This document shows, in pieces, positions 25,605-41,362 of a stretch of DNA of 42,842 nt; position 1 is the first letter of the stretch; every line of letters starts with the position of its first letter. The stretch is from UHGV virus genome UHGV-0138423; one strand, 5' to 3'. Made by a program: the position numbers and the translations under genes. The notes beneath the pieces are model-generated. The model saw only the letters and a list, made by a program, of their open reading frames with translations. It did no database searches and was not told where the DNA came from. This DNA comes from a virus.

Positions 25605-25764
25605 AATGACGCCCTCTGGTGGTTTCTAAACCATCACCACCGTCAGGTTCCTAATCATCGGGTGGTGAGACGTACAGGGTTAGGAACTACCGGGAAACCA
25701 ACCGGCGAGCTTTTCAGCTCCCCCATACGCCCCACCATAATTCAGATGTGCGCGTGCATACGAC

Positions 25765-25789
25765 AATAAAAAACACGCTCGCGGCGTGT
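25765..25789 (-). terminator. tR'-like intrinsic terminator downstream of the late promoter
   Basis: Minus-strand RNA ACACGC-CGCGA-GCGUGU followed by UUUUUUAUU, about 60-80 nt downstream of the predicted pR' start. Confidence 0.55.
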
Positions 25790-25851
25790 GTCTGTCGCGG
25801 TCTCTATCCGGGGTTCCTAATCCCGACGCCAGATTTTGCTGGCGCGTGAGG

Positions 25852-25881
25852 AATATAGCCCCGAATAACAGATTGAGTCAA
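25852..25881 (-). promoter_or_regulatory. pR'-like late promoter overlapping the Q stop codon
   Basis: Minus strand: -35 TTGACT (plus 25876-25881), 18 nt spacer, -10 TATATT (plus 25852-25857); same position relative to Q as lambda pR'. Confidence 0.45.
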
Positions 25882-27877: not shown

Positions 27878-28033
27878 TTACTCCTCAGGTTCGTAAGCTG
27901 TGAAGACAGCGACCTCCGTCTGGCCGGTTCGGAGTCGTACCTCGCAGAGGTCTTTCCTCGTTACCAGTGCCGTCACTATGACGGTTAAACAGATGACGAT
28001 CAGGGCGATTAACATCGCCTTTTGCTGCTTCAT
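27878..28033 (-). CDS. hok: Hok/Gef-family type I toxin
   Basis: 51 aa from the internal ATG: MKQQKAMLIALIVICLTVIVTALVTRKDLCEVRLRTGQTEVAVFTAYEPEE, essentially identical to E. coli HokD/RelF as I recall it. Confidence 0.8.
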   Translation of the reverse strand: MKQQKAMLIALIVICLTVIVTALVTRKDLCEVRLRTGQTEVAVFTAYEPEE

Positions 28034-28292
28034 AGCCTGCTTCTCCTTGCCTTTCGGCACGTAAGAGGCTAACCTACGTGTGTAGAGCATAGATATGGCC
28101 TCAGATTAATGTTAAGCGTCTTGCCGGACGCGTAATGTTAACTGGGGCTTTTCTCTATCTGCCTTTTGGTGTTCATGCCTGAGACAGATAGCCTCAAGCA
28201 CCCGCAGTTATTCTACTTAACTAAGATTTCCCCGCAAACCGTTTTTGTCCGGCACAGTAAATATCCAACTAAACCAATGGCGTTCGCTGTAT

Positions 28293-28592: not shown

Positions 28593-29108
28593 TCATCGTA
28601 AAACATCCTCCACGCTTATCAGTCCATTTCGTTTCAGGTAATCCATCGCCTTCTCCGGTAATTTGCAGTCCGGCTGAGCTTTTTTCAGTTGACTGACCAG
28701 TCGTTTAACCCACATTGTTAATTCGCTAACCTGATTGCCGGATGCTGGTGGATTGTCGGCTTTACCCAGAATGGCAGCGCAGCAGGCCTCTCTGAGCACC
28801 CAGTCAACAGCATCCTTCCATGCTCCTGTTTCGACTGGCGGATTCTCACGCTTTACCTGTTCATAAAAGCGCACGGCTTTAACCAGTCCTTCTGATGTCA
28901 CCGGGACTGGCGGGCCGATGAATAAGGCCTGAATTTCATAGTTCGGCCTGTCGTTACAATCCTCTTTTGTCGGTACATATTTCCAGTCACCAGCCCACGG
29001 CTTCCCCTGAAAGTCTGTAACGTCTTTTTTCACGTAGCGATATCGCCATGCAACTGGTTTTGCCTGCCCTGCCGTTTCATGCCCTTCCTGATAATTAATC
29101 TCGCTCAT
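28593..29108 (-). CDS. Hypothetical protein
   Basis: 171 aa ORF, translationally coupled (ATGA) to the upstream acidic ORF; no family recognised. Confidence 0.5.
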   Translation of the reverse strand: MSEINYQEGHETAGQAKPVAWRYRYVKKDVTDFQGKPWAGDWKYVPTKEDCNDRPNYEIQALFIGPPVPVTSEGLVKAVRFYEQVKRENPPVETGAWKDAVDWVLREACCAAILGKADNPPASGNQVSELTMWVKRLVSQLKKAQPDCKLPEKAMDYLKRNGLISVEDVLR

Positions 29109-29281
29109 TCATCGCCCCACTCATCACAATATGCTTCGACCGGAGTTTTTCCTGCTTCATAATCATCACGCCATGCTTCAGCATCAGCAGCACTGCCACC
29201 ACGTAACTCTGCATAGTCCATTAACAGTTCATGCCATTCTTCAAAACTGGCGTTATATTTAGTTGAACCAAAATCAGCCAT
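29105..29281 (-). CDS. Small acidic protein
   Basis: 58 aa (MADFGSTKYNASFEEWHELLMDYAELRGG...YCDEWGDE), rich in Asp/Glu; start overlaps the stop of the upstream acidic ORF; below the ORF-track size cut-off. Confidence 0.4.
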   Translation of the reverse strand: MADFGSTKYNASFEEWHELLMDYAELRGGSAADAEAWRDDYEAGKTPVEAYCDEWGDE

Positions 29282-29456
29282 TTTGTTCTTCCTCTTCGTC
29301 TTTTATTTCGTGGTATGAGTAATTGCAGTAGTTAAAGAAAATATCTTTAGCTTCATCCTGTATTTCATCTGGTGTTGCATCATCATCCACTTCGAATTCA
29401 TCCTCGAAATCTCCACCGGCTATTCCCGTTTCAATAATTATTTTGAATTTTCGCAT
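29274..29456 (-). CDS. Small highly acidic protein
   Basis: 60 aa, about one third Asp/Glu (..DFEDEFEVDDDATPDEIQDEAKD...KDEEEEQNG); AT-rich. Confidence 0.4.
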   Translation of the reverse strand: MRKFKIIIETGIAGGDFEDEFEVDDDATPDEIQDEAKDIFFNYCNYSYHEIKDEEEEQNG

Positions 29457-29549
29457 TTCACTACCGCCCTTTCGGACGGCCTCCTGATGTTCTGAGGGTG
29501 CAGAAATCCATCCGGTTAAGGATTAAATTTTTAACAGAGCTAAATTTAA

Positions 29550-29906
29550 TTATTCAGTTCTGGATTTTGTCGCCCTGCGTATCCGCGCTTTCGCGTTACG
29601 CTCAATCTGAATTAGCTTTTCTATATTTTTTCGCCTTTCCCGCTCCTCCTGACGCAAGAGCCTTACATCATCTGCCAGTCTGGTTTCTCTTTTCGCCACA
29701 GAGAGCATCCAGTCAAATGGCTCCACAACTGCACCGCAGATTTTACAGCGGACCTGACGCTCTTTTTCGTCAACCCGGACAGAGGCGTGATGACAATATG
29801 GTCTTTCCGATGGCTCATAAAGAAAATTAACCTGATTACGAGGGTCATCCTCTTTTACCGGAAATAAAACGATATTGCTTAACTCATCCTCTGGTTTTAT
29901 TTCCAT
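29550..29906 (-). CDS. Zinc-ribbon-containing hypothetical protein
   Basis: 118 aa with CHH...CKIC metal-binding arrangement and a basic C-terminal helix. Confidence 0.45.
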   Translation of the reverse strand: MEIKPEDELSNIVLFPVKEDDPRNQVNFLYEPSERPYCHHASVRVDEKERQVRCKICGAVVEPFDWMLSVAKRETRLADDVRLLRQEERERRKNIEKLIQIERNAKARIRRATKSRTE

Positions 29907-40986: not shown

Positions 40987-41181
40987 ATGCGGTATGAAAA
41001 AGTCAAACCATGTCCGTTTTGTGGTTGTCCATCAGTAACGGTGAAAGCCATTTCAGGATATTACCGCGCAAAGTGTAACGGATGCGAATCCCGAACTGGC
41101 TATAGTGGAAGTGAAAAAGAAGCACTCGAAAGATGGAATAAACGAACTACTGGAAATAATAATGGAGGTGTTCATGTATAA
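40987..41181 (+). CDS. ralR: Restriction alleviation protein (Lar/RalR family)
   Basis: 64 aa: MRYEKVKPCPFCGCPSVTVKAISGYYRAKCNGCESRTGYSGSEKEALERWNKRTTGNNNGGVHV; Cys4 zinc-ribbon; matches Rac RalR as I recall it. Confidence 0.8.
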   Translation: MRYEKVKPCPFCGCPSVTVKAISGYYRAKCNGCESRTGYSGSEKEALERWNKRTTGNNNGGVHV

Positions 41182-41362
41182 AATTACTGCCACTATTGAA
41201 AAGGAAGGTGGCACTCCTACTAACTGGACAAGGTACTCAAAAACAAAATTAACCAAATCAGAATGCGAAAAAATGCTCTCAGGTAAAAAAGAAGCAGGCG
41301 TTTCCAGAGAGCAGAAAGTAAAGCTGATAAATTTTAATTGCGAGAAGCTTCTGTCCTCGTGA
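41174..41362 (+). CDS. ydaC: YdaC-like small protein (DUF1187)
   Basis: 62 aa from ATG after GGAGG (MYKITATIEKEGGTPTNWTRYSK...); position between ralR and xis as in Rac. Confidence 0.5.
   Translation: MYKITATIEKEGGTPTNWTRYSKTKLTKSECEKMLSGKKEAGVSREQKVKLINFNCEKLLSS

Follow-up and report, generated by a model that had tools for sequence, protein, structure and literature searches.

Two short, overlapping open reading frames (ORFs), here called ORF60 and ORF58, lie on the minus strand of the virus genome UHGV-0138423. The window, meaning the whole stretch of 42,842 nucleotides (nt) that was analysed, is a Rac-like lambdoid prophage of Escherichia coli. An earlier note on this DNA, made from its letters alone, had singled out the pair as consecutive, Asp/Glu-rich mini-proteins of 60 and 58 amino acids (aa) and as candidate DNA mimics with an anti-restriction role. 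Both ORFs are present, and they are the two most acidic ORFs of the window. The features of the pair and its boundaries are as follows.

29274-29456, minus strand: ORF60, 60 aa, DUF7167 family, net charge -15
29105-29281, minus strand: ORF58, 58 aa, PHROG 519, net charge -12
29274-29281, minus strand: stop-start overlap of ORF60 and ORF58, 8 nt, ATGGCTGA
29105-29108, minus strand: stop-start overlap of ORF58 and the downstream gene ORF171, ATGA; also an apparent mosaic junction
29457-29485, minus strand: translation-initiation region of ORF60, with AGGAGG, a predicted hairpin, UAGUGAA and the AUG

ORF60 contains 9 Asp, 11 Glu, 4 Lys and 1 Arg (33% Asp plus Glu), and ORF58 contains 7 Asp, 9 Glu, 2 Lys and 2 Arg (28%). 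Negative charge per residue was compared across the 264 ORFs of 45 aa or more in the six frames of the window. ORF60 and ORF58 took ranks 1 and 2, with -0.25 and -0.21 per residue as compared to -0.115 for the third-ranked ORF. Because these are the most acidic two of 264 ORFs, their adjacency is not a chance effect of composition. The pair lies in an AT-rich patch, as had been noted before, with a GC content of 0.36 in ORF60 and 0.44 in ORF58 compared to 0.489 for the whole window. This low GC content is due in part to the AT-rich codons for Asp, Glu, Lys, Ile, Asn, Phe and Tyr, GAA, GAT, AAA and ATT among them.

Stop-start overlaps had been described as ATGA-type at both junctions. This holds for ORF58 and ORF171, whereas ORF60 and ORF58 overlap by 8 nt. 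The Shine-Dalgarno (SD) sequence of ORF58, GAGGA, is located inside the EEEE codons of ORF60. Translational coupling of the pair is real but not distinctive, because a stop-start overlap is the rule throughout the operon. In the case of ORF60, a perfect SD sequence (AGGAGG) is located 23 nt upstream of the AUG, and a 6-bp hairpin with a GAAA loop (CCGUCC GAAA GGGCGG) lies between the two in both the minimum free energy and the centroid folds. If formed, this predicted hairpin would reduce the effective SD spacing to ~7 nt, and the region can be likened to the split ribosome-binding sites of T4 genes 38 and 25. The hairpin accompanies the ORF60 cassette into phage ArgO145 despite a different upstream gene, and one U.G pair is a C-G pair there. 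No terminator or known RNA was detected in the two genes or in the sequence immediately flanking them.

Sequence comparisons show that ORF60 and ORF58 are genuine genes under purifying selection. For ORF60 and its copy in phage ArgO145, the synonymous rate (dS) was 0.37 and the nonsynonymous rate (dN) 0.007, giving a dN/dS of 0.02. For ORF58 and its 86% identical copy on an IncI2 plasmid, dS was 0.77 and dN 0.07 (dN/dS 0.09). At a threshold of at least 80% coverage, the 352-nt pair was found in 1750 of 5426 complete E. coli genomes. The earlier note had proposed conservation in relatives as a check and loss of the reading frames in homologous regions as evidence that would speak against it; both frames are kept, under strong selection, across very different mobile elements.

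It is extremely improbable that the ORFs are spurious or decaying frames without a protein product. Copies with frameshifts or stops do occur, but the disabled copies examined come from cryptic remnants disrupted by insertion sequences (IS) or from a prophage with other pseudogenes. The dN/dS values of 0.02-0.09, the curated Pfam and PHROG families, the relatives of 40-60% identity in unrelated phage families and the confident folds obtained with AlphaFold2 (AF2) also argue against a spurious origin, which is effectively refuted already.

Two Qin-like remnants of cryptic prophages, disrupted by IS and with ~89% nucleotide identity, have internal stops in both ORFs. In these remnants (L013 and L014, positions 2501-2852, beside ydfW and an IS), ORF60 has a stop at codon 37, and ORF58 has a stop in place of W37 and R in place of W16. 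A further copy (L015, 2501-2852) has lost the ORF60 ATG and has a stop at codon 44; its ORF58 is intact. The presence of pseudogenes in cryptic remnants suggests that ORF60 and ORF58 serve phage propagation and not the fitness of the lysogen. Four ORF60 variants in the databases (P0117, P0119, P0128 and P0137, of which P0128 represents 107 contigs) change to an overlapping frame beyond about residue 35, where their new C-terminus is ...KIFSLTTAITHTTK. The alternative frame corresponds to 29303-29416 of the window, minus strand. These frame-switched variants represent either recurrent frameshift alleles or errors in sequencing an A-rich run.

The earlier statement that the ORFs showed no recognisable similarity is outdated for ORF60, which matches the Pfam family DUF7167 (PF23768) with an E-value of 1.2e-14 and 54.5 bits, as compared to a gathering cutoff of 24.4. 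Residues 2-53 align to profile positions 1-60 of 60, making ORF60 a full-length member, and the protein also matches phrog_1997 (E 2.7e-30). When 1.84 billion representatives were searched exhaustively with HMMER, DUF7167 had 111 matches at E <=1e-3, nearly all of them stand-alone proteins of 50-61 aa. Members were located by tblastn in Stx2a phages, ArgO145, Klebsiella siphoviruses, Enterococcus Herelleviridae and one Pseudomonas phage. Scans of IMG/VR for distant DUF7167 neighbourhoods returned mostly near-identical E. coli prophages and two new contexts. DUF7167 was not mentioned in the literature searched.

Acidity is a property of the whole DUF7167 family: all 57 diverse members analysed are strongly acidic, with a median net charge of -11 and a range of -18 to -7. 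ORF60 has the family signature M-R-K-x-K-V...E-V-x-D-D-A-T-x-E-E-I, as well as each residue of the core that is invariant in 22 diverse members (E22, D25, A27, T28, E31 and I32). ORF60 is an ordinary member of the family and nothing sets it apart. An AF2 model built from a shallow alignment (predicted local distance difference test, pLDDT, 77.8) has strands at residues 2-9, 16-23 and 45-51 and a helix at 29-39. The predicted fold is a beta-beta-alpha-beta mini-domain followed by a short acidic C-terminal helix or tail. T28 directly precedes the modelled helix, and T28 and E31 look like a helix-capping box. On this assignment the remaining acidity of the family would be a surface and compositional property, as expected of a decoy.

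ORF58 belongs to a different family. It matches phrog_519 with an E-value of 8.5e-23 and 82.3 bits, and the whole protein covers only positions 76-137 of the 143 positions in the profile. ORF58 itself had no Pfam, NCBIfam or PADLOC match, a Pfam search of all 44 ORF58-family members gave nothing consistent, and the NCBIfam and PADLOC searches gave no match; PHROG 519 has neither a Pfam nor an NCBIfam model. Relatives at 40-60% identity are found in Ackermannviridae (for example Vi01_151c and Klebsiella Taipeivirus), in the autographivirus phiKDA1 and in two sets of prophages, lambdoid ones of Proteus and P2-like ones of Morganella. Relatives are also carried by 561 plasmids, 516 of them conjugative; these are mostly IncI2 plasmids, at 86% identity, together with IncT and MOBH megaplasmids.

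The family pattern, F-x-x-W-H...A-W-R-x-D-Y-x-x-G-K-T-P...D-E-W-G, is common to ORF58, Vi01_151c, the Klebsiella Taipeivirus proteins, phiKDA1 gp27 and the IncI2 plasmid proteins. Conserved positions are mostly aromatic or hydrophobic (F13, W16, L20, A24, W37, Y41, A50 and W55), with G28, D33 and G44 in addition, and the median net charge of the family is -9. An AF2 model from the 44-sequence alignment predicts a three-helix bundle (pLDDT 87.4; helices at 13-27, 34-42 and 47-55). ORF58 is an ordinary PHROG 519 member. A literature search by accession and PHROG identifier found only an in-silico anti-CRISPR prediction, made with PaCRISPR for Kuttervirus members of PHROG 519 (PMC9409062), and one proteome table. 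Identical proteins are named only 'hypothetical' or 'prophage protein' in their sources.

The pair is located in the pR operon, on the minus strand beyond the repressor/cro switch. The gene order is cro-like, ydaT, O-like, ydaV (P-like), DUF1627, DUF977, DUF4406, Ead/Ea22-like, ORF118 (a 118-aa zinc-ribbon protein), ORF60, ORF58 and ORF171 (171 aa). These are followed on the 3' side of ORF171 by hokD/sok, nin-like genes, a Q-like gene, lysis genes and structural genes. The early-right placement given in the earlier note is therefore correct, with the pair downstream of cro-like/ydaT/O-like/ydaV and upstream of hokD/nin-like/Q-like on the minus strand. At the right end of the window, the plus strand carries recE/recT, ralR with the RalA small RNA, xis and int. 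A 1.5-kb stretch around the pair is 99.3% identical to annotated E. coli chromosomes, in which ORF60 is annotated as 'DUF7167 family protein' and ORF58 as 'hypothetical protein'. The neighbouring genes and the RNA features of the window, each of the latter an Rfam match above the gathering threshold, are listed below.

28593-29108, minus strand: ORF171, phrog_660, without a Pfam family; downstream, translationally coupled neighbour
29550-29906, minus strand: ORF118, phrog_1621, weak zinc-ribbon match and basic C-terminus; frequent upstream neighbour
28028-28203, minus strand: sok antitoxin RNA beside hokD
41180-41358, minus strand: RalA antitoxin small RNA beside ralR
25658-25858, minus strand: C4 antisense RNA, isrK and c4-a1b1 target cluster

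ORF118 is basic (isoelectric point 8.9), with a weak TFIIB-type zinc-ribbon match at residues 36-73 and a C-terminus rich in Lys and Arg. The cluster at 25658-25858 is a P1/P7-type immunity RNA and lies upstream of the late region.

A close ORF58 relative is present in 80 IMG/VR loci, all of them E. coli prophage loci. ORF60 is immediately upstream of ORF58, with a start-to-start spacing of 175 nt, in 79 of the 80. A match to ORF171, possibly partial in some cases, accompanies the pair in 78, and ORF118 is beside it in 49 and also in ArgO145. The position of the pair in the genome is not constant. It is in the pR operon in the window and in the pL-side region in ArgO145 and other Shiga toxin (Stx)-type phages, where Ea22-like genes flank it and the interval is bounded by the recombination genes (exo/gam) and int.

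This pattern could be taken to mean that ORF60 and ORF58 form an obligate two-subunit complex or an antitoxin-like pair, and the near-invariable order and spacing, together with transfer of the pair as a unit between the pL and pR operons, agree with that explanation. However, each family is widespread without the other. DUF7167 is found without ORF58 in Klebsiella, Enterococcus and other phages, and in Ackermannviridae, phiKDA1, P2-like phages and plasmids the relatives of ORF58 occur without DUF7167. The strong negative charge of both proteins (-15 and -12) speaks against direct association, and overlapping stop-start junctions are normal in this operon. An obligate partnership is very unlikely, and an obligate heterodimer was rejected on the independent distributions. 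The coupling reported in the earlier note thus stands, but the two genes are not one functional unit. The pair is best read as two independent modules that move as one cassette in E. coli lambdoid phages.

Different proteins downstream of the ATGA junction begin with a common MSEI(N/D)YQ, which resembles the N-terminus of Ea22. The N-termini are MSEINYQ in ORF171, MSEIDYQALREAAEKA in ArgO145 gp13 and SEINSQALREAAEQA in lambda Ea22. From this shared beginning, the ATGA junction (29105-29108) looks like a recombination joint behind which varied C-terminal domains are swapped.

Both families occur in early or DNA-metabolism gene clusters. Their neighbours are repeatedly recombination or replication nucleases (PD-(D/E)XK, DUF3799 or DUF2800 exonucleases and a PolB-exo-like nuclease) and DNA methyltransferases (Dam, MT-A70 or C5), and also include RecT, a Gp2.5-like single-stranded DNA-binding protein (SSB), the GPA replication protein and an SNF2 helicase. 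On one uncultured phage contig (L240, 5001-5632), a 51-aa ORF58 relative is located downstream of a DUF2800 PD-(D/E)XK nuclease gene and three genes upstream of PF21825, 'Sequestin', an anti-defence nucleotide sponge family described in 2025.

These neighbourhoods bear on the question of whether the proteins are accessory factors of the element's own replication or recombination, that is, acidic adaptors of a nuclease, an SSB or an annealing protein, or imitators of the SSB tail. Both families are recurrently beside exonucleases, RecT, Gp2.5-like or replication genes (in VLCpiS11a, phiKDA1, a Proteus prophage, L240, L177 and a P2-like GPA operon), and ORF60 ends in an acidic tail. However, no partner is constant, as the neighbouring nuclease families (PD-(D/E)XK, DUF3799, DUF2800, PolB-exo-like and RecE) all differ. 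The window has recET in a separate operon, 7-10 kb away from the pair, and the IncI2 relative of ORF58 adjoins SPFH, NfeD and type IV secretion system (T4SS) genes. Such an accessory function is unlikely.

A more specific alternative is inhibition of RecBCD, in the manner of Gam or T7 gp5.9, which would protect linear intermediates of replication or recombination. T7 gp5.9 is an example of a small acidic RecBCD inhibitor. The Rac-like prophage has recET, no gam is annotated in the 99.3% identical reference prophage, and the families adjoin exonucleases in several phages. However, a purely RecBCD-directed function is weakened because ArgO145 carries a gam-like gene and the gene pair together in the same pL operon, and neither sequence nor fold connects the pair to Gam or gp5.9. 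We consider this alternative decidedly unlikely.

In the case of the IncI2 plasmid pMCR-H9, mobC and the relaxase gene are located at 13.9-18.5 kb and the ORF58 relative at 59.0-59.2 kb. Its operon consists of a CaiF-like (CaiF/GrlA-family) regulator, DUF1187 and the ORF58 relative, followed by SPFH, NfeD and T4SS genes. The ORF58 relative overlaps the DUF1187 (RcbA-like) gene by the same kind of 8 nt (L005, 1132-2941), and a DUF1187 gene is also present beside ralR in the near-identical annotated reference prophage (L001). An identity as a plasmid leading-region anti-defence gene was considered and, for IncI2, rejected by this location away from the leading region, which is transferred first and adjoins oriT on the side opposite the relaxase. 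The neighbours of ORF58 relatives on IncT and MOBH megaplasmids had no Pfam domains at all.

The explanation that we favour, tentatively and with more doubt than confidence, is that each protein is made early and, independently of the other, binds a conserved DNA-handling protein of the host stoichiometrically. We infer the binding mode, the target and any anti-defence effect. ORF60 and ORF58 would be made early, from the pR read-through transcript, as two separate small cytoplasmic proteins. Each would then block its target, a conserved host protein with a role in handling DNA or phage nucleic acid, by stoichiometric binding through a densely negative, nucleic-acid-like surface, as a decoy or DNA-mimic inhibitor. 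Candidate targets would be restriction or other defence nucleases, or a housekeeping DNA-binding enzyme.

Several observations count for this explanation: the extreme acidity of both families, the nuclease and methyltransferase neighbours, and the one 'Sequestin' gene three genes away from an ORF58 relative. The AF2 models show compact single domains without a catalytic motif, and the predicted fold of ORF60 is of a class used by several small phage inhibitors, which lends it support. The occurrence of ORF58 relatives in lambdoid phages, P2-like phages, Ackermannviridae, Autographiviridae and 516 conjugative plasmids fits an Enterobacterales-wide target. With their very low dN/dS values, the genes fit constraint on the target or on a DNA-like surface better than they fit a fast arms race. 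The proposed role in DNA mimicry or anti-defence is plausible, and it is reasonable to regard ORF60 and ORF58 as candidate, though unproven, small inhibitors of host proteins.

A number of results weigh against the decoy explanation. Besides DUF7167, ORF60 has no Pfam match at E <=0.1, and ORF58 has none, so that homology to Ocr or ArdA was not detected. PDB searches with single sequences and profiles returned only chance or repeat-bias matches (designed armadillo repeats and SecA), and the ORF58 model had no Foldseek match in the PDB (best E 5.1). By hhalign, the probability was 0.3% for the DUF7167 profile against T7 Gp2 and again 0.3% for the comparison with lambda Orf55. ORF60 and ORF58, modelled as monomers of 6-7 kDa, are far shorter than the Ocr and ArdA dimers. 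In Vi01 the ORF58 relative adjoins the major capsid gene and not an obvious early block, and in IncI2 it heads the tra operon, ~15 kb away from oriT and outside the leading region. The literature searched gave no published function and no experimental data for either family.

A bolder form of the proposal is that DUF7167 and PHROG 519 are two unrecognised classes of mini DNA mimics or decoys with folds unlike those of Ocr and ArdA, and that ORF58, shared by temperate phages, large virulent phages and conjugative plasmids, neutralises an Enterobacterales-wide defence or DNA-processing enzyme. This form is doubtful. If it were true, a two-gene counter-defence cassette able to move between pL and pR would be present in about one third of the E. 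coli genomes sequenced. If either protein inhibits a host defence or DNA-handling enzyme, a function would be gained for two widespread 'dark-matter' families, one a Pfam DUF and the other without a Pfam model. The latter occurs in Stx-converting phages, in Ackermannviridae that are therapeutic candidates and in mcr-1-bearing IncI2 plasmids. As inhibitors, the proteins would add very small scaffolds of 6-7 kDa to the toolbox and would join the known class of small acidic phage and plasmid inhibitor proteins. Small acidic hypothetical proteins are common in mosaic early regions, and nothing here indicates a specific target. The present result is a well-documented, testable candidate, not a discovery or a demonstrated anti-defence system.

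Ocr (T7 gp0.3) and ArdA are elongated dimers of 117-166 aa that imitate ~20 bp or more of bent B-DNA. ORF60 and ORF58 are like them in early expression, dense Asp/Glu content and carriage on phages and conjugative plasmids. However, they are predicted to be compact domains of ~60 aa with different folds, and the IncI2 relatives of ORF58, unlike ArdA-type genes, are outside the leading region. A keyword search of the literature on anti-defence and DNA mimics found nothing relevant. The profile of a small acidic early protein, on which the earlier proposal was based, is borne out by the family-wide acidity and by the early or DNA-metabolism context. The likeness to DNA mimics is not, as sequence searches gave no link, and structure searches no significant one, to Ocr, ArdA or other known DNA mimics.

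The position of the cassette in ArgO145 and Stx2a phages, between exo/gam and int and beside Ea22-like genes, is that of the lambda exo-xis region. The proteins of that region (Orf60a, Orf61, Orf63, Orf55, Ea8.5 and Ea22) are likewise small early accessory products of mosaic lambdoid regions that adjoin Ea22-like genes. Homology was considered for this reason and rejected: BLASTP against orf60a, orf61, orf63, orf55 and ea8.5 gave nothing below E 0.69. Lambda Orf60a is basic (+6) and Orf63 only mildly acidic (-4), in contrast to ORF60 and ORF58. Lambda Orf55 was modelled by Donaldson with the same fold class as ORF60 and compared to Gp2 and p56, and exo-xis genes are reported to shift the lysis-lysogeny decision (PMC8614690).

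These parallels raise the possibility that ORF60 and ORF58 are modulators of host takeover or development and not anti-defence proteins, acting by inhibition of RNA polymerase, as T7 Gp2 does, or by regulation of the lysis-lysogeny decision, as reported for the lambda and Stx-phage exo-xis genes. The very low dN/dS would suit an invariant housekeeping target better than an arms-race target. However, the lack of sequence similarity to the lambda proteins, the hhalign probability against Gp2 and the absence of arginine from the predicted third strand of ORF60 (45-51, NYSYHEI) argue against it; Gp2 needs R56 and R58 near strand 3 to bind the beta-prime jaw, a comparison based on a modelled strand and not on aligned residues. 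Relatives on conjugative plasmids and virulent phages also speak against a lysogeny-specific function. Such modulation is conceivable, although we would not expect it. By every test run at the sequence level, ORF60 and ORF58 appear not to be members of the Ocr, ArdA, Gp2 or lambda exo-xis families.

Small phage inhibitors are among the closest known parallels. T7 Gp2 inhibits the host RNA polymerase, p56 inhibits uracil-DNA glycosylase, and T4 Dmd is an antitoxin against RnlA/LsoA. All three act as stoichiometric inhibitors, and Gp2 and p56 have negative surfaces that imitate DNA. They are phage proteins of ~50-64 aa with a three-stranded antiparallel sheet on one helix, a class that the predicted fold of ORF60 resembles. 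Phage p56 and Gp2 were in the top six Foldseek matches of the ORF60 model, at E >0.8, and p56, Gp2 and Dmd are among its best matches of the same size; these matches are weak and non-significant. The resemblance of the modelled ORF60 to Gp2 and p56 may therefore be used as a lead on a small, stoichiometric mode of inhibition, and not as a sign of family membership.

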